A stretch of DNA of 11,025 bases, from positions 1-11,025 of the IMG/VR virus record IMGVR_UViG_2541047885_000020. One strand, 5' to 3'. Below, one piece after another: positions 1-11,025 of the stretch (its first letter is position 1; every line of letters begins with the position of its first letter). Under the pieces are notes generated by a model. It saw nothing but the letters and a program-made list of their open reading frames with translations, made no database searches and had not been told where the DNA came from. This DNA comes from a virus (Duplodnaviria > Heunggongvirae > Uroviricota > Caudoviricetes). A program made the position numbers and the translations under genes.

Positions 1-339
1 TCACAATATTAATTTCGTTTCATGCCAGCCTTTAGTCACCCAGCATTGCGAGTCACCATTACACGGGCATGAATTCACAGGAACTCTCTCGCCGCACTTA
101 CCGCAACGTTTTCTGCTGATCGATTTTATACGCCCGTGCACGCGCGCATCATCCTGGCGGATCAGTAACGCTATATACTCACCAAATTCGTAAGGCGCAC
201 GCCCGGGGCGACGTGTGGCACAGTTACGCTCCAGCATTTCAATTTCCTGAGCATCAAGCACAATCTCCAGCTTACGCACACCAGATGCAGCTTGTCTGGC
301 TATCTGAGCGGCTTTGCGCTCTGCTGCTGCCTTGGTCAT
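1..339 (-). CDS. Hypothetical prophage protein with a C-terminal Cys-rich motif (C-x2-C-x9-C-x-C-x5-C), possibly zinc-binding
   Basis: Complete ORF, stop at 1..3 (TGA on - strand). The track starts it at GTG 351, but ATG 339 lies 8 nt after a GGTGG Shine-Dalgarno, so 339 is the likelier start. Last gene of the leftward accessory cluster. No family recognised. Confidence 0.5.
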   Translation of the reverse strand: MTKAAAERKAAQIARQAASGVRKLEIVLDAQEIEMLERNCATRRPGRAPYEFGEYIALLIRQDDARVHGRIKSISRKRCGKCGERVPVNSCPCNGDSQCWVTKGWHETKLIL

Positions 340-424
340 TACCATATCCACCCAATTTCACCAGACATGATTCTCGCAATCACTATCATCACCAAAGTGA
401 TAATCACAACTTTAACTGGCGGCA

Positions 425-1312
425 TTATTCACCATCATGCTGCGGCGGTTCTGGTAGCGGCATCCAGTGTGATGGTATCCACGACGCACCAGGTATTACC
501 CACCCATCATTAGCGTCAGGATGCCCCGGGATGTAAGTCGCCCATTTCATTCGCCAGTCACCTTTCCTGTCAAACTCCCTGGCAACAAGAACGGCTGTTT
601 TGGTATCCGGCATTCGCTCACTACAGCTTATCCAACCATCCGGAGTTACCGGAACTTGTGGAATGGCTGTCTGCTCTCGAACGTCATTAGGCGCTATAGG
701 TTCTGCTGCCAACTGACTGGCATATTTGTTAATGGTAACGATAAGCTCTTGCTCAGCCTCATCCAGACAATCACCGATACCTCGCCTGTCACCGTCAAAA
801 TCATCGAAATCGGCACGAATCCTGGCAACCTTCAGGATTGCGGACAACACCTCACTAGGAATTGCCGGATAGTTGGTTGACGTTTCCGCGATTTCCCGAA
901 AATTATTGGTTGACGAATTCTTGTTTTCCCGAAAGTTTCCGGACTGAAGCATGGCGGCGCGGCAGGCGTTCCAGGCAAATAGTGCGGCTTCTTCCACTGA
1001 AGGCGGAGAGTATCGCTCGATAAACGCCTGTGCATTTGACAGCCTCCACTCATGAGGCAATACCGGCGCTGGCGGGGCGATGCGTCCAAGCAACTTATTT
1101 ACCTCTTTCGCCATCGCGTCATATTTATCTAAATAGCGATTAGCTTCTAAGCAGACTCGGTGCATCTGATCTGAGTTAACTCGTTTAACGGGATCTGCTT
1201 CCAGCGATGCCAGAGCAATTCGTGCCAGTTCCATTTGTTCGCCACGGGTAAGTCCGTTATCAAGCGGATTTTTAATGAATAATTCGATACGTTCTTTGGT
1301 AATAGTGGTCAT
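425..1312 (-). CDS. DUF551-domain prophage protein (C-terminal DUF551-like signature, N-terminal ~200 aa of unknown function)
   Basis: 295-aa ORF; ATG at 1312 preceded by AGGTG with 8-nt spacing. The C-terminus (...WVIPGASWIPSHWMPLPEPP) matches the conserved end of DUF551 proteins common in lambdoid prophages. Adjacent to the stop of the upstream 63-aa gene. Confidence 0.65.
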   Translation of the reverse strand: MTTITKERIELFIKNPLDNGLTRGEQMELARIALASLEADPVKRVNSDQMHRVCLEANRYLDKYDAMAKEVNKLLGRIAPPAPVLPHEWRLSNAQAFIERYSPPSVEEAALFAWNACRAAMLQSGNFRENKNSSTNNFREIAETSTNYPAIPSEVLSAILKVARIRADFDDFDGDRRGIGDCLDEAEQELIVTINKYASQLAAEPIAPNDVREQTAIPQVPVTPDGWISCSERMPDTKTAVLVAREFDRKGDWRMKWATYIPGHPDANDGWVIPGASWIPSHWMPLPEPPQHDGE

Positions 1313-1314
1313 AG

Positions 1315-1506
1315 CTATTTCACCTTAATCTCAACATTTCGCAGCTTTAGCTCTACTGGCAGGTCTGACTTTCCTGTTAATGCTAATGCGAGATTTTCTG
1401 GAGTAATGAGAGCAGTTATTGTTTTCCCCCTCGCCAGACGAATAATCATTCGTATCTCGCGATCGTCACATGCTCCCGGTCGAACAATTGATATTTGTCC
1501 GTCCAT
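1315..1506 (-). CDS. Small hypothetical prophage protein (63 aa)
   Basis: ATG at 1506 preceded by AGGAG with 6-nt spacing; tightly packed between neighbouring genes in the same operon. No recognisable motif. Confidence 0.5.
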   Translation of the reverse strand: MDGQISIVRPGACDDREIRMIIRLARGKTITALITPENLALALTGKSDLPVELKLRNVEIKVK

Positions 1507-1507
1507 C

Positions 1508-2032
1508 TCACTCTCCTTTGATGCGAATGCCAGCGACGCGTAATGCGTGTTCTAGGTCAATCAGGTAAAGCCAACTGCCATTTTCTTTAGGTATCATGAC
1601 ATGTCGCTCATCTGCATTTATCGGGTGTCCATATCGAAGGTCGTAGCGAGTCGGTAATTGAACTTCCCGCGCTTCCAGTTCAGCAATACGCTTCTCTGCG
1701 GCCTCTGCCCTGCATTGTTCCCGTTGGAACATTTTGTGGGTGCGGTCGAGCGCCTCAAGTCTAGCTGCTGATGTTTTCTCTTCTGCTTCAAGCTCAACGC
1801 GCAGCTTCCCTACCGTTAGCGCAATATCCTCGTTCTCCTGGTCGCGGCTTTTGATGTATTGCAGGTTTCTTTCCCGTTCATCCAACAATGCCAGCGCGAT
1901 ATCTGGCGAAAAGTGCTTCATAAAATCGTTAAGCGCATTAATTCGCTGATCGAAAGGCATTACAGGTGCTTCACCAGCAATTTTTGTTTTTTCAGCGATT
2001 TCACGAAGCTTTTGATAGTCAATCTTGCTCAC
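1508..2032 (-). CDS. Ead/Ea22-like coiled-coil prophage protein (putative)
   Basis: 174-aa ORF starting at GTG 2032 with a perfect AGGAGG 6 nt upstream; GTGA start/stop overlap with the upstream gene. Charged, heptad-like central region (RVELEAEEKTSAARLEALDRT...AEAAEKRIAELEAR). Family assignment is from memory of Ea22-like N-termini and needs profile confirmation. Confidence 0.5.
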   Translation of the reverse strand: MSKIDYQKLREIAEKTKIAGEAPVMPFDQRINALNDFMKHFSPDIALALLDERERNLQYIKSRDQENEDIALTVGKLRVELEAEEKTSAARLEALDRTHKMFQREQCRAEAAEKRIAELEAREVQLPTRYDLRYGHPINADERHVMIPKENGSWLYLIDLEHALRVAGIRIKGE

Positions 2033-2466
2033 TGGCTGCCTCCTTTGCGAAGCTGGGCGGCTAACTCATCACATATGTGCGTCAAAGAACAAAGTTTGAT
2101 TGATGGATGTTCGCGCATCATCTCTACCCCCTGCGCCCGCACTTCAGACAGGAAAGCATCGGTGGCTGGCATATTTCCTGTTGCCTTCATTGCCTCCAAA
2201 ATAACCAGAACGCCATCTCGCCCAATCTCCTCGCAGATAACCTCGGTGCTGTCGCCAACAACATCGCAAAATGCCTGAACTGCTTTACGAGCCAGCGCAT
2301 TCTCCGCAGCCAGCGCATTAGCACGCACCAGTTGCACTTCCAGTTGCGTTGCCAAATAGCTGATCAGCTTTGCCACACTGCGCATATCAACGGCACCACA
2401 TTCTGCTTTCAGTTCCGAAGCCATCTCATGCCCGGCGGCAACTAACCATTTGATATTACTTTCCAT
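2029..2466 (-). CDS. Hypothetical prophage protein (145 aa)
   Basis: ATG at 2466 preceded by GAGGG with 5-nt spacing; stop overlaps the start of the next gene. No family recognised. Confidence 0.55.
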   Translation of the reverse strand: MESNIKWLVAAGHEMASELKAECGAVDMRSVAKLISYLATQLEVQLVRANALAAENALARKAVQAFCDVVGDSTEVICEEIGRDGVLVILEAMKATGNMPATDAFLSEVRAQGVEMMREHPSIKLCSLTHICDELAAQLRKGGSQ

Positions 2467-2527
2467 CTTTACCCTCGCTTATCCACATAACTTATTGATT
2501 ACATTGATAACTAAAAAGATCGTCGAT

Positions 2528-2875
2528 TCAGAACTCTTCGATGTTCCAGCCACCACCTGCTTTCTTTGGCTTAACCGTTACCCCGATGATTCGGAACGGA
2601 TACTGATCTGCGGCGACTTTGGTTTTCACTCTGGCGTCATCGGTCCAGAATCCCCCTTTCACTTCGTGCAGCTCCATCTCGCCGGTGGCGAGCATCACAG
2701 CGAAATCGGGCGTATAGAACGTGTTATTAGCTAACCGCAGCTTGATACCCTCGAATCGATACCAGGCGATTTCCCCTGCACGTTTACGCAGCTCAAGGTG
2801 CTGGCAATACGCAGATTCAGTTTTGTTCATCTGGCCTGTTTTGAGTCGACCAAGAGCCTGTATCTGTTTTCTCAT
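2528..2875 (-). CDS. DUF1064-like small protein, putative PD-(D/E)xK-type nuclease
   Basis: 115-aa ORF; ATG at 2875 preceded by GAGGT with 5-nt spacing. Motifs (NKTESAYCQHLEL...AGEI...TPDFAV...ELHEVKG) resemble the D...E-x-K pattern of DUF1064 proteins found after replication genes in lambdoid phages. First gene after the third operator/promoter module. Confidence 0.5.
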   Translation of the reverse strand: MRKQIQALGRLKTGQMNKTESAYCQHLELRKRAGEIAWYRFEGIKLRLANNTFYTPDFAVMLATGEMELHEVKGGFWTDDARVKTKVAADQYPFRIIGVTVKPKKAGGGWNIEEF

Positions 2876-2878
2876 GAT

Positions 2879-2955
2879 TTACCTCTGAGGTAATTAAAAA
2901 CCACATAAGACATGAAATCAATAGAGCTTATAATATTTTGTTACCTAACGGGTAA
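2879..2955 (-). promoter_or_regulatory. Third operator/promoter module: two perfect TTACC-N5-GGTAA palindromes flanking a leftward promoter
   Basis: Palindromes at 2879..2893 (TTACCtctgaGGTAA) and 2941..2955 (TTACCtaacgGGTAA), centres 62 bp apart, the same spacing as in the PL module. On the - strand the 47-nt spacer aligns with the PL spacer (shared CTATTGA; -35 TTGATT = plus 2916..2921; -10-like TTTAAT = plus 2893..2898). Boundaries are approximate. Confidence 0.45.
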
Positions 2956-2967
2956 TTATCGAGGCGT

Positions 2968-2987
2968 AAAAAAATGCGCTATCGCGC
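2968..2987 (-). terminator. Weak intrinsic terminator after the P-like gene
   Basis: On the - strand: GCGC-GATA-GCGC hairpin (4-bp stem) followed by A and seven U residues, immediately after the P-like stop codon (2993..2995). The short stem makes this tentative. Confidence 0.3.
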
Positions 2988-2992
2988 TGGTA

Positions 2993-3793
2993 TTACTTGA
3001 TAAATCCTGCCGCCTTTCCCCGCCTGTATTCCTCCATCAGCCACTGCGCCGGTGTTATTCCCCCAAGGGTGGCGGCGTTAGGCATGCACCCGAAACTTCG
3101 CCCTGGTGGATGGTAAACGTCTCTCCCTGTGTCCGGAGGTGTACTCATGGGCTCTGGCTTTGCCTGTATGCTGATCACCGGATCGGGTATCTGCTGTCCG
3201 GAAGCCACCTTTTTCGCCCAATCATCGAGCAACCTGCGCGCGTGTTTCTCAACCTCAATCTCGCTAAGCTGGCGCTGATACATTGCACGACGGGTATCAC
3301 ATACGACCCAGTACATAACCGGATGCCGCCACGGGAATCTTTCGGGACCACCAGGATATAAACTTTTTTCCTTGCTGTACCGGTGAAACTCCGCCATCAC
3401 ATCGTCAATGGTGACGCCAAGAACCATCTTGCTGTCTTTGCACCACTTGATGAATTGCCCTGGCGACGGCCAGAACGGAGATTCACTGGCGCGGGCGTGG
3501 CGCATACCAGCAGAAACCTGTTCACGGGTACGTATTCCCCCTTCGGCAAACGCAGCAATCCACTGCTGTTTTGCAGCAACTTCCTGCTCTGGCGTCTTCA
3601 GGTTGGTTACCACTGCCGCCGGAAACAGTTGTTTCAGCTGTTTGAAAAGTGCATCAACAAGCCTCTCTGCTGACATGTTCACCACATTGTCATTGTTGAC
3701 GTACTGATGCTCATAACCTGACATGCGAGAAAGGGCTTCTCCGTCACGGTTTTGTATCGCGGTAAAAACGTTGTTCACAAGAAATCCTCCCAC
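2993..3793 (-). CDS. Lambda P-like replication protein (DnaB helicase loader)
   Basis: 266-aa ORF. By recollection of the lambda P sequence it shares FPA..., Q.W..AF.E.GI.T.EQV.AGMR.AR, PF.PSPGQF..WC and LYP....PW motifs in the same order. GTG start at 3793 overlaps the O-like gene end (3775) by 19 bp. Confidence 0.8.
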   Translation of the reverse strand: MGGFLVNNVFTAIQNRDGEALSRMSGYEHQYVNNDNVVNMSAERLVDALFKQLKQLFPAAVVTNLKTPEQEVAAKQQWIAAFAEGGIRTREQVSAGMRHARASESPFWPSPGQFIKWCKDSKMVLGVTIDDVMAEFHRYSKEKSLYPGGPERFPWRHPVMYWVVCDTRRAMYQRQLSEIEVEKHARRLLDDWAKKVASGQQIPDPVISIQAKPEPMSTPPDTGRDVYHPPGRSFGCMPNAATLGGITPAQWLMEEYRRGKAAGFIK

Positions 3794-4590
3794 GCTTCAG
3801 GGCTGTTCCAGTGCGGAACGTTGTTATCAGGTAATGTTGATTGCTTCTGTCTGCTAATCTGCAGCCGCCTTGCCAGCTTCTGCTCCCACTGTGCCTGATG
3901 GTATGCCTTACCCTCAGCCATCCAGTAAATTCTGAACTCTGCAAGTTCCTGTGCCGTTGGCAGACTGTCCAGGTAGATTCCCTGCAATGAGCTTTTCCGA
4001 AGAAAGTCATCTGATGGCTGCCATTGTTCATGCATGACAAATTTGCCTAATTGCCCTGGCCCACCAGGAGGAACAAAGTTATTCATCACGGCGTTGTTTG
4101 CGCCGGGGTCATGAGGCACAGAATCCCCGGTTTTTGTCCTGCTCTCCCTCTCTTGGTTAAATGACTGGTTATATGACTGGTTCTGGATCCCGTTTTTGGG
4201 ATCATTCAACATCCCGTTTTTGGGATCATTCAACATCCCGTTTTTGGGTATATTCCCGTTTTCGGGAACATTACCGTTTTCGGGTTCATTACACCCTTCT
4301 AGGTTGCCTTTAATGTTCCCGTTTTTGGTTATATTAAGAGAGAAAACCCGCACTCTTTTTGTCGCTCCCTTTCTCTCTCCGGTATCTGAAATAAGCCCCA
4401 TTTTCATGAGCGATATAAGCCCGGCCTGCACGGTTTTTTTATTCAGGCAAGTGTCTTTAACGAGGCGTTCTATGCTGGGGTAGCAGAGGTTATATTCATC
4501 GGCTCTGTCAGCCATCGAGAGCAGTATGAGCTTTAATGATGAGCTACCTGGATCTGTCTCCCAGGCCCAATCTGTTGCATGTCTGCTCAT
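3775..4590 (-). CDS. Lambda O-like replication initiator with an iteron-encoded repetitive linker
   Basis: 271-aa ORF; ATG at 4590 preceded by GGAG with 7-nt spacing. N-terminal HTH replisome-organizer-like region (LKLILLSMADRADEYNLCYPSIERLVKDTCLNKKTVQAGLISLMKMGLI); central low-complexity repeats (PENGNVPENGNIPKNGMLNDPKNGMLNDPKNG) encoded by the iteron array; position immediately upstream of the P-like gene. Confidence 0.75.
   Translation of the reverse strand: MSRHATDWAWETDPGSSSLKLILLSMADRADEYNLCYPSIERLVKDTCLNKKTVQAGLISLMKMGLISDTGERKGATKRVRVFSLNITKNGNIKGNLEGCNEPENGNVPENGNIPKNGMLNDPKNGMLNDPKNGIQNQSYNQSFNQERESRTKTGDSVPHDPGANNAVMNNFVPPGGPGQLGKFVMHEQWQPSDDFLRKSSLQGIYLDSLPTAQELAEFRIYWMAEGKAYHQAQWEQKLARRLQISRQKQSTLPDNNVPHWNSPEAWEDFL
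4187..4340. repeat. Iteron array, probable phage origin of replication inside the O-like gene
   Basis: Exact 24-bp tandem repeat ATCCCGTTTTTGGGATCATTCAAC at 4187..4210 and 4211..4234 (internal palindrome ATCCC/GGGAT), then degenerate copies (CCCGTTTTTGGGTAT, CCGTTTTCGGGAACATTAC, CGTTTTCGGGTTCATTAC, CCCGTTTTTGGTTAT) and an A/T-rich stretch to about 4340. Same layout as ori-lambda. Confidence 0.7.
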
Positions 4591-4605
4591 GATTAATCTC
4601 CGCTA

Positions 4606-4806
4606 TCAGCTTGAGTGTTGTGGGGAGGAATTAATCATGATCTGCTTAATCTCTGCCCTGATGCGACGGTTTGATTCCATGGTGCACTCAACACAGTGTC
4701 CGTTGTAAACCCAGCGTTCACTGTCATGTCCATGCTTACATGGTTTTCCGGTGTAGTAGCGTTTAAGTCCGCGCTTTGCGGCATCAATACGTGTAATGAT
4801 TTCCAT
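4606..4806 (-). CDS. Small Cys/His-rich (zinc-ribbon-like) protein at the cII position, putative regulator
   Basis: ATG at 4806 preceded by AGGG with 6-nt spacing; the longer track ORF starts at TTG 4869 with no ribosome-binding site, so the 66-aa form is preferred. Motif PCKHGH-x10-HCVEC could bind a metal. Function not recognised; not similar to lambda CII as I recall it. Confidence 0.5.
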   Translation of the reverse strand: MEIITRIDAAKRGLKRYYTGKPCKHGHDSERWVYNGHCVECTMESNRRIRAEIKQIMINSSPQHSS

Positions 4807-4904
4807 GGTAAGCCCTGTTATTAGTATTGGGATTACGGTCATTTTGTGCTGACACAAAAAAAAGATCAACCAGATTTGGTTATTTATTACCTTTGAGGTA
4901 CGAA

Positions 4905-4935
4905 TAGATATGAAAAGACCGCCGGGTGGCGGTCT
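4905..4935 (-). terminator. tR1-like intrinsic terminator between the cro-like and cII-position genes
   Basis: On the - strand: perfect 8-bp stem AGACCGCC/GGCGGUCU with ACCC loop (plus 4916..4935), followed by UUUCAUAUCUAUU. It lies about 20 nt after the cro-like stop and about 100 nt before the next start. Confidence 0.4.
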
Positions 4936-4956
4936 ACAGAGGGTTGTAGCTGGATA

Positions 4957-5187
4957 TCATGAGTAGAAGAAGTATGCCAGTTCTGCTTTTGAGCGCAGCC
5001 ATTGTCTTGTTTTACAGGCTTTAAAAAGCCCATTCATCAATACTTTACCTGGCATTTTGCGCTTACCTGTTAAGTGAGTCTGGATATAGTGACTCGTCGT
5101 TCCGGCTTCCTGTGCGAAGGCTTCACGCTCATCCGGAGTAAGTGCAAGCCAGTGCTTTTTGAAATCGAAATGTCCGTTATCGCTCAT
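4957..5187 (-). CDS. Cro-like small HTH regulator (putative)
   Basis: 76-aa ORF divergent from the repressor gene across a 154-bp operator region; ATG at 5187 with AGG 8 nt upstream. HTH-like segment (DEREAFAQEAGTTSHYIQTHLTG). The call rests mainly on position and size. Confidence 0.5.
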   Translation of the reverse strand: MSDNGHFDFKKHWLALTPDEREAFAQEAGTTSHYIQTHLTGKRKMPGKVLMNGLFKACKTRQWLRSKAELAYFFYS

Positions 5188-5212
5188 AGCTATTGCCTGA
5201 TATTTATTTCAG

Positions 5213-5286
5213 ATAATAAATATTCACCCATAAGGTAACAAAAATCAAGGATAGTTACCTATGAGGTGCATTTACCTGTTGGGTAA
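5213..5286. promoter_or_regulatory. OR-like divergent operator/promoter region with three operator sites
   Basis: Operator-like sites at 5224..5238 (TCACCcataaGGTAA, 9/10), 5255..5269 (TTACCtatgaGGTGC, 8/10) and 5272..5286 (TTACCtgttgGGTAA, perfect). Leftward PR-like promoter on the - strand: -35 TTGTTA (plus 5236..5241), 17-nt spacer, -10 TATTAT (plus 5213..5218). The rightward repressor promoter was not confidently located. Confidence 0.5.
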
Positions 5287-5341
5287 TATTGCTTTAAATT
5301 GAATCATCTACTGATTCATATATGAGGCGATTTTCCAGAAA

Positions 5342-5926
5342 ATGAAAAGTATCCAGGACGTCCGCAGGCAAAATCTCAACGACTTGATCGACCGTGAATT
5401 CAATGGTGTTCAGACGCGGATGGCAGAAAAACTTGGAACTCAGGCAAATCTGGTAAACCGCTGGGCTCTTGGCAAGAAGGTTATCGGCGACCAGGTTGCG
5501 CGAAAAATTGAAGCTGCCGCCAATAAACCCCGTAACTGGCTTGATATCGATCGCTCGCTTTCTCAGGAAGGTTTTCAGCCTGTCGGCCCAAGCGACATTG
5601 GTCAGCTGGCGGCTCACAACCTGGAACGCTGGATGAGCGAAAGCCGCGACCTTTCAACGCAGGGAAAACTTCACCGCGCATCCGGCGTCGCCCAGGTGAC
5701 AATCAGTCGCCTGTTAAACAATGAGGTCAGCGTTTCCATTTCCACCCTGGAGAATGTTGCATCCGCATTCGGGCGTCACGGCTATGAATTACTGATTCAC
5801 CCGCACGACCCTGCGACCATCAACTATGACCGCTCGCGCTACGCATTGTTACCCGAAACCGAGAAAGCAAAGATCGAAAGTTACATTGAATTTGTCATCA
5901 ACCAGAACGAAAAAAACAAACAATAA
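5342..5926 (+). CDS. Prophage immunity repressor, XRE-type with two HTH-like segments and no LexA/S24-type autocleavage motif
   Basis: 194-aa ORF between the OR-like and OL-like operator clusters, followed by an intrinsic terminator. HTH-like segments near residues 24-45 (VQTRMAEKLGTQANLVNRWALGK) and 110-135 (LHRASGVAQVTISRLLNNEVSVSISTLENVA). No Ala-Gly/Cys-Gly cleavage site and no GDSM/Ser-Lys dyad visible. Confidence 0.6.
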   Translation: MKSIQDVRRQNLNDLIDREFNGVQTRMAEKLGTQANLVNRWALGKKVIGDQVARKIEAAANKPRNWLDIDRSLSQEGFQPVGPSDIGQLAAHNLERWMSESRDLSTQGKLHRASGVAQVTISRLLNNEVSVSISTLENVASAFGRHGYELLIHPHDPATINYDRSRYALLPETEKAKIESYIEFVINQNEKNKQ

Positions 5927-5946
5927 AATCATACTTTTCAGTAAGT

Positions 5947-5970
5947 AAGCCGCCTTCTGGCGGCTTTTTT
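5947..5970 (+). terminator. Rho-independent terminator downstream of the repressor gene
   Basis: AAGCCGCC-TTCT-GGCGGCTT hairpin (8-bp stem) followed by TTTTTT, 21 nt after the repressor stop codon; no U-tract in the opposite orientation. Confidence 0.7.
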
Positions 5971-5983
5971 ATTGCCTATACTA

Positions 5984-6060
5984 TTACCTGATGGGTAATT
6001 TTTTTAACTCATATCTATTGACATCAAACCAAATACGCATAATTATTACCTCAACGGTAA
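5984..6060 (+). promoter_or_regulatory. PL-like early-left promoter flanked by two perfect operator palindromes
   Basis: Operators at 5984..5998 (TTACCtgatgGGTAA) and 6046..6060 (TTACCtcaacGGTAA), centres 62 bp apart. Consensus -35 TTGACA at 6018..6023; -10 candidates CATAAT (6038..6043) or AATTAT (6041..6046) abut or overlap the downstream operator. The first downstream start codon is at 6080 with GAGG at 6067..6070. Confidence 0.6.
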
Positions 6061-6079
6061 CAGACCGAGGTAACAAGTT

Positions 6080-6232
6080 ATGCAGTGGAAAATCATCAAC
6101 GGTTGGTACTGCGTTACTGCATGCGGATTCATGAGCTGGAAGTTCCGCACCTTACAGGAAGGCATTAAGTGGGCTTTCGTCAGCAAAGAAGCTCGCGATG
6201 TGGCCAACGATAACGAGATATGGGAGGGCTGA
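6080..6232 (+). CDS. Small Trp-rich hypothetical protein (50 aa), first ORF of the early-left operon
   Basis: Absent from the ORF track (below its length cutoff); hand-translated as MQWKIINGWYCVTACGFMSWKFRTLQEGIKWAFVSKEARDVANDNEIWEG. ATG 6080 is 9 nt after GAGG; TGA at 6230..6232. Not arginine-rich, so not an N-like antiterminator. Confidence 0.4.
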   Translation: MQWKIINGWYCVTACGFMSWKFRTLQEGIKWAFVSKEARDVANDNEIWEG

Positions 6233-6234
6233 TA

Positions 6235-6534
6235 ATGAACGTTAATCAGCAGAAAAATCTTCAAAAAATCATGCTGGCATTCGACAAGGACTACCGCCTG
6301 TCAGAACAGCTATATGACCGACAAGTTGAACTGATTGAGAGCATCCGACTTCATCAACTGTCCTCAACTTTCGACGTTGTAACAGGCAAAGGCGTTCGTC
6401 AGGAAGTGCTGGAGGCTGCTAAAGACAGCCCTGAGTTCGAAGAACTGATGGATGCCTACCGGCGCGAGGCAATGGCAATTATAGCGCGCTGGGATCTGGC
6501 GGATCAGCTTGATGGACAGAGGGACGCGGCATGA
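6235..6534 (+). CDS. Hypothetical protein (about 100 aa) coupled to the recombination module
   Basis: ATG at 6235 preceded by GGGAGGG; the track ORF starts at 6220 but the ribosome-binding site favours 6235. Its stop overlaps the exonuclease start (ATGA, 6531..6534). No family recognised. Confidence 0.6.
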   Translation: MNVNQQKNLQKIMLAFDKDYRLSEQLYDRQVELIESIRLHQLSSTFDVVTGKGVRQEVLEAAKDSPEFEELMDAYRREAMAIIARWDLADQLDGQRDAA

Positions 6535-7352
6535 AACCGGGAATTTATTTCGACATCAGCAACGAAGACTACCACGCCGGTGACGGCGTGAGTAAGTCGC
6601 AACTGGACATGGTTGCCAAGAATCCGGCGCTTCTTAAATGGGTTCAGGCAGCACCAGAAGACGAAGAGAAAAAGTCTGCACTGGATATGGGAACCGCATT
6701 GCACTGTCTGCTTCTGGAGCCTGGAGAGTTCGACAAACGCTTCATTGTTTCACCGAAATTCGATCGTCGGACGAAACAAGGTAAAGCTGACGAAGAGGCA
6801 TTTCTTCGTGATGTGGCGGATATGGGGATTACGGTACTTGATGCCGAGCAGTGGCGGAAACTGGAGCTGATGCGTGATAGCGCAATGGCTCACCCGGCGG
6901 CACGCTGGATGCTGGAAGCACCTGGTTACTGCGAAGCATCAATGTACTGGAATGATGAAGAGACTGGTGAGTTGTGCCGCATTCGTCCAGACAAATGGCT
7001 GAACGAGCACAACGTGATCGTCGACGTGAAAAAGGTTGCAGATATGGATCGTTTTGCACGCCACATCGAGGAATTCCGCTACCACGTGCAGGACGCAATG
7101 TACCGCGAAGGAGCGATGAGGGTTACTGGTCAGTCGCATGGTTTTTTCTTTCTTGCCGTGAGCGAAAGCATTGATTGTGGTCGGTATCCGGTACGCATGT
7201 TCGCGCTGGATGCGCCGGATGTCGATGCCGGGCACGCTCTGTTCCGCCGGGATCTGAATACCTATCACGAATGCCGCATCAATGATGAATGGGGCGGCGT
7301 GGAAATTATTAAACGCCCTGACTGGGCACGTAAACAGGATATGTACGTATGA
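6531..7352 (+). CDS. RecE-like PD-(D/E)xK exonuclease (exodeoxyribonuclease VIII-like domain), recombination partner of the annealing protein
   Basis: 273-aa ORF with a PD-(D/E)xK-like arrangement (...CRIRPDKW...IVDVKKV...YHVQDAMY...) and an N-terminal GIYFDISNEDYHAGDGVSKSQL motif resembling the RecE C-terminal nuclease/DUF3799 family. ATGA-coupled to the downstream annealing protein gene. Confidence 0.6.
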   Translation: MKPGIYFDISNEDYHAGDGVSKSQLDMVAKNPALLKWVQAAPEDEEKKSALDMGTALHCLLLEPGEFDKRFIVSPKFDRRTKQGKADEEAFLRDVADMGITVLDAEQWRKLELMRDSAMAHPAARWMLEAPGYCEASMYWNDEETGELCRIRPDKWLNEHNVIVDVKKVADMDRFARHIEEFRYHVQDAMYREGAMRVTGQSHGFFFLAVSESIDCGRYPVRMFALDAPDVDAGHALFRRDLNTYHECRINDEWGGVEIIKRPDWARKQDMYV

Positions 7353-8230
7353 GCAATGATATCGCAATCACATCACAACCAGGCGCAACTGTAGGTACTG
7401 CTGCGGCAATCTTCAGCCCGGAGGGCATGAATCAACTGGTGCGTTTCGCGGAGTTGATGTCACAAAGCAAAGCGACTGTACCGAAACATCTTGAAGGCAA
7501 ACCTGCCGATTGTCTGGCGGTGACCATGCAGGCGGCACAGTGGGGAATGAACCCTTTCGCCGTGGCGCAGAAAACGCATGTGGTAAACGGAACGTTAGGC
7601 TACGAAGCACAGTTGGTAAACGCGGTCGTATCCTCTTCCAGCCTGCTGGCGACACGCCTGAATTATCGCTGGAGCGGTGACTGGTCGAATGTTAACGGCA
7701 AAACAGATAAATCACCGAATCTGACGGTAACTGTGTCAGCAGTTCTTAAAGGAGAAGCAGAACCCCGTGAGCTTACCATCAGTATGGCGCAAGCCGGAGT
7801 GCGTAACTCTCCATTGTGGGAACAGGATCCGCGCCAGCAGCTTGCCTATCTTTGCACGAAACGATGGGCTCGCCTGCACGCTCCTGATGTGCTTCTCGGT
7901 GTTTACACCCCTGACGAATTACAGGAAACGGCACCGCGCGTTGAGCGAGACATTACTCCGCAAACAACTACTGCTGCGGGAATGAACAGTCTGATCAACG
8001 CTAAACCAGTGAAAAAGCCTGATGAGCAAACTCGTAAAGCGGATAGCCGTGATCCAGAAGAAATGCTGATGGCCTTTACCAGCGCAGCGATGAATTACAG
8101 CACTGTCTCCGAACTGGATAAGGCTTACAAATACATTGCACAAAAACTTTCAGATGATGACGAACTGCTGGCAAAAGCCACCGACGTTTACAGCGTTCGT
8201 CGGGAAGAATTAAACGAAACATCTATGTAA
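7349..8230 (+). CDS. RecT/Redbeta (Bet)-family single-strand annealing protein
   Basis: 293-aa ORF. From memory of lambda Bet it shares the core A-D-x-x-A-x-x-x-x-A-x-Q-x-G-[LM]-N-P-[WF] (ADCLAVTMQAAQWGMNPF here vs SDAQFIALLIVANQYGLNPW in Bet) and a downstream ERDITP motif. Sits directly after the exonuclease, as in recE-recT modules. Confidence 0.7.
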   Translation: MSNDIAITSQPGATVGTAAAIFSPEGMNQLVRFAELMSQSKATVPKHLEGKPADCLAVTMQAAQWGMNPFAVAQKTHVVNGTLGYEAQLVNAVVSSSSLLATRLNYRWSGDWSNVNGKTDKSPNLTVTVSAVLKGEAEPRELTISMAQAGVRNSPLWEQDPRQQLAYLCTKRWARLHAPDVLLGVYTPDELQETAPRVERDITPQTTTAAGMNSLINAKPVKKPDEQTRKADSRDPEEMLMAFTSAAMNYSTVSELDKAYKYIAQKLSDDDELLAKATDVYSVRREELNETSM

Positions 8231-8279
8231 CCACCACCGCGGCGCCACACGCGCCGCACTGCAACCAAGAGAGGTATTT

Positions 8280-8528
8280 ATGAAAGGTGCATTAGATAAG
8301 AAGAAACTCCTGGCGGTGGTGCCACTGTCATGGAGCACTATCGACCGTATGGAGCGCGCAGGGGAATTTCCTAAACGCTGGTATATCACTGACAAACGCT
8401 GCGCATGGAACCGTGACGAAGTTGAGCGTTGGCTTGATGAACGTCAGGCAGCAAGCCCGGCAGAGTTCCAGGGTAAAAAGCCTCCTGTTCAGCAACGTGT
8501 ATATCGTCCTGTGAGAAACGCTGCATGA
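8280..8528 (+). CDS. AlpA-family excisionase / DNA-binding regulator (Xis-like)
   Basis: 82-aa ORF; ATG at 8280 preceded by AGAGAGG with 6-nt spacing. Motif (LLAVVPLSWSTIDRMERAGEFPKRWYITDKRCAWNRDEVERWL) matches the AlpA/phage excisionase winged-helix family that typically accompanies P4-type integrases. Confidence 0.75.
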   Translation: MKGALDKKKLLAVVPLSWSTIDRMERAGEFPKRWYITDKRCAWNRDEVERWLDERQAASPAEFQGKKPPVQQRVYRPVRNAA

Positions 8529-8637
8529 GTGTGCTGCTAAGGCACTGGAGCAAATGGTCAGGATGGTACTTATTCCTGGCCTCTGTTTCAGCATGGCTTT
8601 ATCTGCTGGCATTAATTTTCAGAGAGGGTTGGATTAA

Positions 8638-8937
8638 GTGAGAAAGTTAAGCCGACTTGAAAAATATCACATGAATAAGGTTTCAATGCGCAGTCCGTCA
8701 AAGATTGTCGCCGTTACTCCTGCGGCGATAGAGATCGAAAAACGCGCGATTGAAAGAGAGAAAAAAGGGCAATTCCGCATTGCCGCTCACCTTTGGCTTC
8801 AGTGTATGGATGTTGCTTCTGGTGATGTTGAACGTGCAAGGATCGCGGTTCGCAGGGACCAATGTATCACAAAAGGTAACGGCCTTCGCCGTGGCGACTA
8901 TAGCGGCATAGGATGTTGTGGGGTGGTTTATGACTAA
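8638..8937 (+). CDS. PerC/ANR-family-like small transcriptional regulator (putative)
   Basis: ORF with a GTG start at 8638 (AGAGAGGG 9 nt upstream); ATG starts at 8671 or 8686 are possible alternatives. Motif EKKGQFRIAAHLWLQCMDVASGDVERARIAVRRDQC resembles the PerC-family pattern (G-x-[FYW]-R-x-A-A-x-x-W ... ER ... RR..C). The stop overlaps the methyltransferase start. Confidence 0.5.
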   Translation: MRKLSRLEKYHMNKVSMRSPSKIVAVTPAAIEIEKRAIEREKKGQFRIAAHLWLQCMDVASGDVERARIAVRRDQCITKGNGLRRGDYSGIGCCGVVYD

Positions 8938-9580
8938 GAAATACACACTAATCTATGCAGATCCACCCTGGGTATACCGGGACAAAGCCGCAGATGGTAA
9001 TCGCGGTGCCGGTTTTAAATATCCGGTTATGAGTGTGCTGGATATCTGCCGCCTTCCTGTGTGGGATTTGGCCGATGAAAACTGTTTGTTGGCCATGTGG
9101 TGGGTGCCAACACAACCACTCGAAGCACTAAAAGTTGTTGAAGCCTGGGGATTCCGTCTGATGACCATGAAGGGCTTCACGTGGATAAAATGTGGTAGTC
9201 GACAACCAGATAAACTGGTTATGGGTATGGGACACATGACTCGCGCCAATAGTGAAGATTGCCTGTTTGCGGTAAAGGGAAAACTACCTACGCGCATTAA
9301 TGCAGGGATCGTTCAGTCATTTACCGCACCGCGGCTTGAGCATTCAAGAAAGCCAGATGTCGTTCGTGAAAAACTTGTGCAATTGTTAGGCGATGTTTCT
9401 CGCATTGAACTGTTCGCCCGCCAGTCGTCTCATGGTTTCGATGTTTGGGGTAATCAGTGCGAAGACCCGGCAGTGCAACTACACCCTGGATACGCGTTGG
9501 ATATTGCCAGATTAACAAATGCATTCAGCAATGCTCCGCTGTCACCAACAGACAACCAGGGGCGGGAGCGTGCTGCATGA
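8930..9580 (+). CDS. MT-A70-family DNA N6-adenine methyltransferase (orphan, phage-encoded)
   Basis: Catalytic DPPW motif near the N-terminus (MTKKYTLIYADPPWVY...), typical of MT-A70 methyltransferases. ATG 8930 preferred over the track start at GTG 8918; GGGTGG lies immediately upstream. No cognate restriction endonuclease gene nearby. Confidence 0.8.
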   Translation: MTKKYTLIYADPPWVYRDKAADGNRGAGFKYPVMSVLDICRLPVWDLADENCLLAMWWVPTQPLEALKVVEAWGFRLMTMKGFTWIKCGSRQPDKLVMGMGHMTRANSEDCLFAVKGKLPTRINAGIVQSFTAPRLEHSRKPDVVREKLVQLLGDVSRIELFARQSSHGFDVWGNQCEDPAVQLHPGYALDIARLTNAFSNAPLSPTDNQGRERAA

Positions 9581-9771
9581 ACAGGGCATCACCAGCAGAT
9601 TTAAGAAAATGCCTTGAAACTGCAAACATGCTTGCACACAGCGGGATCAGGTTTGTTCCAATTCCCGCTGTCACTGATGCTGAATTTGCAACACTGTCAG
9701 CAATATTCGAAAACAAAATTGAATCACTGGCAGCAGAAGCAGAGATGGAAGAAAATCAGCAGAACTATTAA
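9577..9771 (+). CDS. Small hypothetical protein (64 aa), last gene of the early-left operon
   Basis: ATG 9577 overlaps the methyltransferase stop (ATGA). The track ORF from 9457 is extended upstream in a frame overlapping the methyltransferase, so the short form is preferred. Ends 3 nt before the convergent integrase stop. No family recognised. Confidence 0.5.
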   Translation: MNRASPADLRKCLETANMLAHSGIRFVPIPAVTDAEFATLSAIFENKIESLAAEAEMEENQQNY

Positions 9772-9774
9772 ACG

Positions 9775-11025
9775 TTATTCCCCCGCCATCCACTTCTCAA
9801 ACTTCGACGGGGAGAACGGAATCAGATCCGTATGCTCCCCGTCAATCCAGGAATCAATCATATCGGCCCACTGCTGCAACATGTAGGCGCGCTGTCTGGC
9901 GTATTCCGCTTTGTTATATACGGCGCGCACACCTTTCTGCTCATGTGCCAGAGCCTTTTCAATCCAGTCTGAAGGATAACCAGCCTCATGCAACAACGTA
10001 CTGGCTGTACGGCGCATATCATGTACGGTGAAGTCCTGAATATGCTCACCATCTTCATTTATTATTTTCACCGTTCTGTCGATCAGAGAGTTCAGCGCGG
10101 CATTAGATAATGGCTTCCGGAAGTTGTAACGACCAGGAACCAGATATTCACTTCCACCAGCGCACATCTGCAACCCGACCAATATATCCTGTGCCTGTTT
10201 AGGCAGGTAAATAACATGCGCCCGGCTTCCCTTCATGCGGTCTGAAGGAATTGTCCATGTCCATTTTTTAAAATCTATTTCGTCCCACGTTGCATTGGTG
10301 AATTCGCCTTTACGAACCATAGTGATAAGCACCAGCTTTAAAGCCATTTTCATAGTGCCCATAGCACCAATGGCATCCAGCGTGCGGAAGAACAGGCCAA
10401 TTTCTTCTGGTGTCAGTGTTCGCTCTCGTGGTTTAAATATGGCGATAGACGAAGGTTTAATGTCAGCCGCAGGATTAAACAAACCATGACCACGGTCATT
10501 GGCGTGACGGTATACGCTGCTGATGATCTCCCTGGCCTGCACTGCTGTTGCCCGACCACCGCGTTCGACAATCCGGTCACACAAATCACGAACCATCGAT
10601 GTGGTAATTTCAGTCATCATTTTGTTGCCAAGAACCGGAAGTATGTCACGGTCGATCACCGCCTGCTTCATTGCGCGGGTACTGTCAGCCAGGATGACAT
10701 GTTTCATATAACTGTCGGTATGTACCGCAAACGTCTCGGCACCACGAATCTTTTTGATACCGTCACGTTTAGCCGCAGCCGGTGACTGGCCTGCTTTAAG
10801 CAGCTTCTTTGCAGCAATCAGTTCTTCTCGCGCTTCTGCCAGGCTGATACCGTCACGCCCATACTGCCCGATTACCAGTGTTTCGCGGCGACCGTTGATA
10901 CGGTAGTCATAGCGAAACGAGACCGTGCCTGACGTAAGCACAGCTACATACAGCCCGTCACGATCGGAGACCTTGTACAGTTTGTCCTGCGGCTTGAGGT
11001 TTTTTAATTTTGTATCGGTAAGCAC
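9775..11025 (-). CDS. int: Tyrosine site-specific integrase, P4/IntS-like; N-terminus at the window edge (possibly GTG start or 5'-truncated by the window)
   Basis: 416-aa ORF with the LTDTKLKNLKPQDKLYKVSDRDGLYVAVL N-terminal arm-binding motif typical of P4-type integrases and a C-terminal catalytic region (R...HDMRRT...LAHE...VRAVYNKAEY) with the conserved H-x-x-R and terminal Tyr. The first codon is GTG at 11023..11025, exactly at the window end. Confidence 0.9.
   Translation of the reverse strand: MLTDTKLKNLKPQDKLYKVSDRDGLYVAVLTSGTVSFRYDYRINGRRETLVIGQYGRDGISLAEAREELIAAKKLLKAGQSPAAAKRDGIKKIRGAETFAVHTDSYMKHVILADSTRAMKQAVIDRDILPVLGNKMMTEITTSMVRDLCDRIVERGGRATAVQAREIISSVYRHANDRGHGLFNPAADIKPSSIAIFKPRERTLTPEEIGLFFRTLDAIGAMGTMKMALKLVLITMVRKGEFTNATWDEIDFKKWTWTIPSDRMKGSRAHVIYLPKQAQDILVGLQMCAGGSEYLVPGRYNFRKPLSNAALNSLIDRTVKIINEDGEHIQDFTVHDMRRTASTLLHEAGYPSDWIEKALAHEQKGVRAVYNKAEYARQRAYMLQQWADMIDSWIDGEHTDLIPFSPSKFEKWMAGE

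Follow-up and report, generated by a model that had tools for sequence, protein, structure and literature searches.

A probable Gam relative encoded ahead of the exonuclease and RecT genes in epsilon15/phiV10-like temperate phages

Introduction

Phage proteins directed against RecBCD have been surveyed in lambdoid recombination modules, where Gam, GamL, Abc2 and MuGam were distinguished as anti-RecBCD types (PMC12315714, published in 2025). In the complex of RecBCD with Gam, the duplex-binding arm of RecB is contacted extensively by the Gam dimer, one subunit of which fills the RecB single-strand channel with its N-terminal helix (PMC5218532). Gam and the GamL protein of phage phi80 are very different in sequence, and a common fold has been predicted for them (PMC12315714). 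Here, a further candidate of this group is described. It is the product of the open reading frame (ORF) at positions 6235-6534 of a stretch of 11,025 nucleotides from a virus of the Caudoviricetes (positions 1 to 11,025 of IMG/VR record IMGVR_UViG_2541047885_000020), which is referred to as the window.

The presence of an anti-RecBCD gene is also reflected in the Chi content of phage genomes. Phages carrying Gam or Abc2 strongly avoid Chi, whereas those without an inhibitor accumulate it (PMC3784561; PMC12315714 Table 1). About 12% of the inhibitor-encoding lambdoid phages are Chi-rich as well, and their sites usually lie well away from the Rec module (PMC12315714 Fig. 7).

An earlier note, made from the letters of the window, had described the ORF product as a protein coupled to a RecE-like/RecT-like pair and, from its position, as a candidate nuclease inhibitor or recombination accessory factor. 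The gene and its Shine-Dalgarno sequence are the following.

6235..6534, plus strand: Gam-like gene; 99 amino acids, all-alpha and acidic; the same protein as phiV10 gp38; PHROG 856; very likely a remote homologue of lambda GamS
6223..6229, plus strand: Shine-Dalgarno sequence GGGAGGG of the Gam-like gene, five bases 5' of its start, read from the sequence

Similarity to lambda Gam in sequence and fold

The product of the ORF is very likely a Gam homologue with the GamS fold, as indicated by sequence profiles and by structure prediction. A profile of 18 diverse members of its family (A2) was searched against 177,635 PDB sequences and matched lambda Gam (5MBV, 2UUZ) with E ~0.14, in a colinear manner (query 30-86 against chain 32-91); a match at this level is a lead, not a result. 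One family member, P0058, has Gam as its best Pfam match (PF06064, E 0.0042, 17.7 bits), with residues 31-94 aligned to positions 33-96 of the 98 in the model. Its second-best PHROG match is Gam PHROG 259, in the same register. Comparison of the family with a 14-sequence Gam alignment by hhalign gave a probability of 89% and an E-value of 2.3e-6 over 56 columns (31-86 against 33-90). Addition of the 37%-identical Gam of phiES15 changed the probability to 85-86%, and across both alignments the E-values were 2-6e-6.

As a control, the columns of the Gam alignment were permuted one by one or in blocks of 4 or 7 columns, in 450 permutations altogether. The real score of 35.4 compares with a permuted mean of 12-13 (standard deviation 2.6, maximum 25.6) and with 15.6 for the reversed profile. 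Identity to lambda Gam is ~18-22%, and the motif common to the family and Gam can be written as G-[VA]-[RS]..[VA][LI]..A..[DS].EF[EQ]E...A...R......IA, where the shared segment continues after EF[EQ]E as an amphipathic helix ending in IA.

Structure prediction depended on the alignment supplied. With close relatives only (A1), AlphaFold2 reached a predicted local distance difference test (pLDDT) value of 65, and a Foldseek search with that model returned nothing meaningful. The confident model was produced by template-free AlphaFold2 from a diverse alignment of 31-55% identical members (A4) that contained no Gam sequences; its pLDDT is 92.6 and its predicted template modelling score 0.78, with four of the five models at ~92. 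It comprises helices at residues 3-13, 20-36, 39-52, 56-63 and 66-98 and shows the helical fold of GamS. In the PDB, the top five Foldseek matches of this model are all lambda GamS chains (probability 0.94-1.00, target-normalised template modelling score 0.62-0.77), with weak E-values of 0.29-1.2. Four of these chains superpose at 1.7-2.0 A over 69-74 columns, and the full-length chain 5mbv_A at 11.3 A over 94 columns. The shared body, residues 31-86, superposes on Gam at 1.4 A. Two of the checks proposed in the earlier note, remote homology and structure prediction, both point to Gam; its remark that the protein shows no similarity to Gam is correct for pairwise searches and curated thresholds and does not hold at the profile and fold level.

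Alternatively, the protein could be an unrelated small early protein, e.g., a regulator, a Kil/CIII-like host-takeover factor or another anti-defence protein, whose resemblance to Gam is coincidental. Small acidic helical proteins are numerous in early-left regions and evolve fast, and searches with single sequences gave no significant match: the window protein has none in Pfam (E<=10), NCBIfam or PADLOC, and phmmer against the PDB sequences returned only Sec4 at E 1.4. Such a coincidence would have to include an hhalign score above the maximum of the permuted alignments, and it is regarded as highly improbable.

As for function, the ORF product probably inhibits RecBCD in the manner of Gam, as a divergent host-nuclease inhibitor of the Gam lineage (probability roughly 0.6). 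We infer this activity from the homology, the position in the operon and the pairing of relatives with Mog, whereas the new N-terminus and the Chi pattern, treated below, reduce its weight. The candidate nuclease inhibitor in the position of Gam proposed by the earlier note thereby gains support from profile homology and the GamS fold match, RecBCD inhibition being the inferred part.

A conserved gene for a hypothetical protein

The ORF extends from the ATG at 6235 to the TGA at 6532-6534 and thus has 99 codons, one fewer than the 100 residues given in the earlier note. A start at the ATG at 6220 is unsupported, since all homologues begin with MN, and a Shine-Dalgarno sequence of the GAGGTG type is kept 5' of the gene start in divergent loci. 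The stop codon shares ATGA with the start of the exonuclease gene (ATG at 6531-6533), and the exonuclease stop and the recT start share another ATGA at 7349-7352; both 4-bp overlaps had been noted earlier and are confirmed from the sequence. Upstream, an ORF of 50 amino acids ends at 6232 and leaves two bases before the Gam-like gene; together with the two overlaps, this makes four tightly stacked genes.

The ORF is intact and followed by the ATGA junction in all 80 IMG/VR loci retrieved. Among the 45 distinct alleles in these loci, 38 codon variants are synonymous and 21 non-synonymous, and 42 of the 59 base changes fall on third codon positions. The gene is therefore real and under purifying selection in the annotated frame. 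Homologues at 31-55% identity are 97-102 amino acids long, occupy the same position and overlap the next gene by ATGA or GTGA.

In databases the family has remained without a name. The window protein shares 100% identity with phiV10 gp38 and ~50% with epsilon15 gp36 and SPN1S_0041, all of which are annotated as hypothetical, and it matches PHROG 856 ("unknown function") end to end with E 1.5e-55. An exhaustive search of 1.84 billion representative proteins with a hidden Markov model yielded 32 clusters, all of ~100 amino acids or fragments, and no fusion was found among them. This picture of ~100-residue proteins without fusions rules out that the protein was split off from the long N-terminal region of Rac-type RecE. 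The single long profile match is a TPR protein aligned through its repeats, and matches of the family profile to PPR and alpha-solenoid proteins do not reflect homology, as no single stretch exceeds the threshold. Of 5,426 complete E. coli genomes, 563 contain a match, and in those listed RefSeq still names the product "hypothetical protein". In the literature searched, neither experiments on the window protein or any family member nor a paper naming the gene as Gam-like were found. The PHROG 856 protein, which PHROG, Pfam, NCBIfam and RefSeq leave unnamed, is very likely a distant relative of Gam that had gone unrecognised.

Gene neighbourhood and modularity

The gene order in lambda is kil-gam-bet-exo, and the Gam-like gene sits in the gam slot; in a contig of lambdoid type (L174), the order is KilR, Gam-like gene, exonuclease and RecT. 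The comparison with a co-translated third partner such as lambda Gam, drawn in the earlier note, is right as to the slot and approximate as to the junction, since lambda gam and bet are separated by 5 nucleotides without overlap. Linkage to a recombination module was observed in 36 phage records and 8 divergent metagenomic loci, and no Gam-like gene outside such a module was seen in the loci examined.

This constant association, together with the ATGA or GTGA coupling to the next recombination gene that is conserved across the family, would also suit a dedicated accessory subunit of the exonuclease or RecT (a chaperone, processivity factor or loader) without a host target, in which case the likeness to Gam would only mean a small helical fold. 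The partners argue otherwise. The gene 3' of the Gam-like gene encodes a DUF3799 nuclease in the window and RecT itself in L168, and nucleases of the lambda-Exo/YqaJ type are found at this place in epsilon15 (gp35, L177 31113-32012), in L173 (715-1614) and in some E. coli prophages. In prophages with the YqaJ-type partner (H191, H192), homology to the window breaks exactly at the last base of the Gam-like ORF. The family of the partner is thus exchanged among DUF3799, YqaJ/lambda-Exo and RecT while the protein stays >97% identical at the DNA level. A specific subunit interface would scarcely allow this, and the pattern suggests an autonomous module like Gam rather than a subunit of one nuclease. 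In addition, the likeness to Gam extends to sequence as well as fold, and Gam too is always accompanied by a recombinase (PMC3784561). A role as accessory subunit is accordingly judged improbable.

Further indications for the inhibitor reading come from Mog. In the phi80 record the gene order is mog-gamL-rec-exo; Mog is annotated as "anti-toxin for Gam" and GamL as "gam-like host nuclease inhibitor; toxic without Mog". Statements on GamL and Mog rest on the phi80 GenBank annotation and on PMC12315714. Homologues of Mog lie directly upstream of the Gam-like gene in five divergent relatives; their first ~180 residues are 40-74% identical to phi80 Mog, and their last ~40-50 residues 46-60% (low-complexity filter on).

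L167, 2980-3993: Mog homologue
L169, 3034-3993: Mog homologue
L172, 1603-2628: Mog homologue
L175, 264-1244: Mog homologue
L173, 1-411: Mog homologue
L170 (phi80), 5844-6812: Mog

Agt/Mog corresponds to PHROG 1376 (unknown function) and has a long central region rich in Glu, Ala, Lys and Arg. In the relatives, Mog forms an optional cassette between the 50-amino-acid ORF and the Gam-like gene. No Mog was detected in the window by tblastn, and none is annotated at the equivalent position in phiV10, epsilon15 or SPN1S.

Points against RecBCD inhibition and a modified role

Several observations weigh against a Gam homologue that simply inhibits RecBCD. The gathering score of PF06064 (25 bits) is reached by no member, the best being P0058 with 17.7, and the window protein gives no match to this model. 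Over residues 1-32 the family does not resemble Gam, its score of 7.0 lying below the null mean of 7.8, and the N-terminal region is modelled as helix-break-helix and not as the one long helix of Gam. AlphaFold was trained on the PDB, including the Gam structure, and the fold match is for this reason not fully independent of that structure. Finally, the Chi avoidance that is statistically correlated with Gam in phages is absent from phiV10, epsilon15 and Tyrion. Chi (GCTGGTGG) was counted in these three genomes, with an expectation derived from a trinucleotide model that is not codon-aware.

phiV10 (L176): 8 Chi on the top and 0 on the bottom strand; ~2.0 expected on top; Poisson P 0.001
epsilon15 (L177): 6 on the top and 0 on the bottom strand; ~2.0 expected on top; Poisson P 0.02
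Tyrion (L178): 9 on the top and 1 on the bottom strand; ~1.7 expected on top; Poisson P 0.0001

In all three Uetakevirus genomes the sites are located in late genes and the integrase gene, nearly all on the late-gene strand. None was found in the early regions of these phages, and none between ~28 kb and the right end. The only Chi of the window (10154-10161) lies in the integrase gene. This richness in Chi would not be expected of phages with both recombinases and a Gam-like protein, and it is real evidence against a simple and complete shut-off of RecBCD.

The same observations raise the question of a protein with the Gam fold and a different or attenuated job, in which the N-terminal plug helix has been replaced and RecBCD may not be shut down. 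It might modulate RecBCD so that Chi-activated recombination stays usable, act briefly and early, or be directed at another host factor that binds DNA ends, a nuclease such as SbcCD or a defence protein. An N-terminus unrelated to Gam would fit such a role, as would the 6-9 co-oriented Chi sites per Uetakevirus genome against ~2 expected, a pattern which in lambdoid phages goes with the absence of an inhibitor (PMC12315714 Table 1; PMC3784561). GamL, which keeps the Gam N-terminus without the C-terminal part, indicates a separate, modular evolution of the two halves. On the other hand, what the family has in common with Gam is the larger body (residues 31-86, 1.4 A), and the contact between the Gam dimer and the RecB arm is extensive (PMC5218532). 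Relatives are paired with Mog in the way of phi80 GamL, an anti-RecBCD protein, and the distribution of Chi resembles that of the ~12% of inhibitor-encoding lambdoid phages which are Chi-rich far from the Rec module (PMC12315714). A modified job is considered unlikely, though to be taken seriously.

A more specific form of this idea can be put forward as a speculation to which only a small probability is given. The family might represent a third Gam lineage, in which the body forming the dimer and mimicking the duplex is combined with a different N-terminal helix in phages with co-oriented Chi, and which gates RecBCD or has been retargeted. If gating applies, RecBCD would be limited in time or activity, and the phage would use its own RecE/RecT together with Chi-activated RecBCD. 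If retargeting applies, the protein would be aimed at another end-binding host nuclease or at a defence system. Such a lineage would break the rule for lambdoid phages of having an inhibitor or Chi but not both.

Proposed mode of action and implications

For the preferred reading, inhibition of RecBCD in the Gam manner, the following course of events may be envisaged. Upon infection or prophage induction, one message would be made from a repressor-controlled early-left promoter and would cover the four genes from the 50-amino-acid ORF to recT. Through the tight and overlapping junctions observed in the sequence, the products would be delivered together, if co-transcription and translational coupling occur as the layout suggests. 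The acidic helical protein of 99 residues is predicted to take the GamS fold and would dimerise as GamS does; a net charge of -6 and a pI of 4.7 are compatible with a GamS-type dimer showing a DNA-like acidic surface. By analogy with its homologue, this DNA mimic would occupy the site for double-stranded DNA ends in host RecBCD, and perhaps in SbcCD. Linear phage DNA, rolling-circle tails and the recombination intermediates of exonuclease and RecT could thereby escape degradation.

A conserved hypothetical protein known as phiV10 gp38, epsilon15 gp36 and PHROG 856 thus gains a testable function. Surveys that rely on the Pfam models of Gam and Abc2 would count its phages as lacking an anti-RecBCD gene, and this affects conclusions on the selection of Chi. 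The cassette of the window, with the Gam-like, RecE (C-terminal)-like and RecT genes, is a compact natural candidate for recombineering trials on linear double-stranded DNA. The protein is also a candidate trigger or evader of defence systems that guard RecBCD.

The early-left operon of the window

The window is 94-98% identical in DNA to temperate podophages of the genus Uetakevirus (phiV10, vB_EcoP_ZX5, TL-2011b), which are relatives of Salmonella phage epsilon15, and it represents the early-left operon of an epsilon15/phiV10-like phage of this kind. Its control region and leading genes are as follows.

5342-5926, plus strand: repressor with two helix-turn-helix motifs
5947..5966, plus strand: hairpin resembling an intrinsic terminator, with a T run, just 3' of the repressor gene; phiV10 has a terminator annotated at the same place
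5984..5998, no strand assigned: operator-like palindrome TTACCTGATGGGTAA, 5' of the -35 of the early-left promoter-like site
6018..6046, plus strand: sigma-70 promoter-like site TTGACA-17-AATTAT, with 10 of 12 consensus matches, between two operator-like palindromes
6046..6060, no strand assigned: operator-like palindrome TTACCTCAACGGTAA, overlapping the -10 end of the promoter-like site
6080..6232, plus strand: ORF of 50 amino acids, first gene of the operon; PHROG 898; epsilon15 gp37 and phiV10 gp39
6531..7352, plus strand: RecE-type exonuclease (DUF3799, PD-(D/E)XK) of 273 amino acids, corresponding to the C-terminal nuclease domain of exonuclease VIII
7349..8230, plus strand: RecT-family single-strand annealing protein of 293 amino acids (RecT E 1.2e-31)

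The hairpin separates repressor transcription from the early-left operon, and the site at 6018..6046 is the probable early-left promoter for the four genes from the 50-amino-acid ORF to recT. The 15-bp palindrome TTACC-N5-GGTAA, with up to one mismatch, occurs in 7 copies in the window against 0.16 expected.

2879-2893 and 2941-2955: palindrome copies near 2.9 kb, 5' of a DUF1064-like gene
4887-4901: palindrome copy
5224-5238 and 5272-5286: palindrome copies
5984-5998 and 6046-6060: palindrome copies flanking the early-left promoter-like site

Two of the copies are located in the intergenic region between the repressor gene and a cro-like gene. Repressor-binding sites are annotated at equivalent places in epsilon15, and the palindromes are probably repressor operators.

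The 50-amino-acid product is rich in Trp and Cys and is conserved at the head of the operon; its SPN1S counterpart is 79% identical. The ORF also stands ahead of Mog in L167, L169 and L175, and no family or function was found for it beyond PHROG 898.

The two genes that follow the Gam-like gene are indeed RecE-like and RecT-like, as the earlier note had it; the first matches Pfam DUF3799 with E 6.5e-22 and positions 606-873 of the NCBIfam exoVIII model, and the second belongs to the RecT family. They form two genes with an ATGA overlap in the window, ZX5 and TL-2011b. The phiV10 annotation gives a single exonuclease-RecT fusion of 586 amino acids instead (L002 2132-3892), which is either real or a frameshift in the record. 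A gene of 136 amino acids is inserted between the exonuclease and RecT genes in SPN1S (L003 3308-3718) and, at the same position, in SPC32H, breaking the overlap seen in the window; a putative HNH endonuclease is annotated in this region of SPC32H. Another RecE-related protein was encountered in the Shigella phage 75/02 Stx (L086 1456-3504). This 682-amino-acid protein matches only the N-terminal Exonuc_VIII Pfam domain, is encoded directly 5' of a true gam with which its gene overlaps, followed by bet and exo, and may belong to the nuclease-less "RecE-2" proteins of PMC12315714.

In the same orientation, 3' of recT, an AlpA-like excisionase gene is found. It is followed by genes for a PerC-family activator homologue (8638-8937), an MT-A70-type adenine methyltransferase (8918-9580) and, likewise in operon orientation, a DUF1382 protein of the family of lambda orf63 (9577-9771). 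The integrase gene lies on the opposite strand. The layout of the window is thus the counterpart of lambda cI / pL / ... kil-gam-bet-exo-xis-int.

Comparison with known anti-RecBCD proteins

Small early anti-RecBCD proteins encoded with or near phage recombination genes include P22 Abc2 (PF11043; PDB 8B1T) and T7 gp5.9. The closest described protein is lambda GamS (PF06064; PHROG 259; PDB 2UUZ, 2UV1, 5MBV), with 98 amino acids compared to 99 here; both are all-alpha and acidic, with net charges of -10 for GamS, -6 for the window protein and -7 for GamL. As with GamS, the gene heads the recombination genes of a repressor-controlled early-left operon, in the company of a recombinase. Unlike lambda gam, it overlaps the downstream gene, and a RecE-type nuclease and RecT take the place of Bet and Exo as partners. 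The phages of the present family are Chi-rich, whereas lambda has no Chi. The N-terminal ~30 residues are unrelated to those of Gam and are predicted as helix-break-helix; judged by sequence, the family appears to have replaced exactly the helix with which Gam enters the RecB channel.

The GamL protein of phi80/Lula (PF28165; PHROG 1050), an acidic protein of ~93 amino acids, is encoded in the same operon slot as the window gene. Its partner Mog has homologues directly upstream of divergent members of the Gam-like family; the window itself has none. A direct similarity between the family and GamL was rejected, as hhalign gave a probability of 0.4% (score 12.4), PF28165 was not matched and tblastn at E<=10 missed phi80. 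Comparison of phi80 GamL (L170 5555-5836) with lambda gam (L004 1817-2233) revealed that only the first 26 residues are common, with an hhalign probability of 91-95%. GamL therefore keeps the N-terminus of Gam, and the present family keeps the C-terminal body, residues 31-86. As they share different parts of Gam, the three lineages look mosaic, and Gam-like inhibitors seem to be put together from two parts that can be exchanged. The inhibitor appears to evolve by swapping an N-terminal helix and a C-terminal body.
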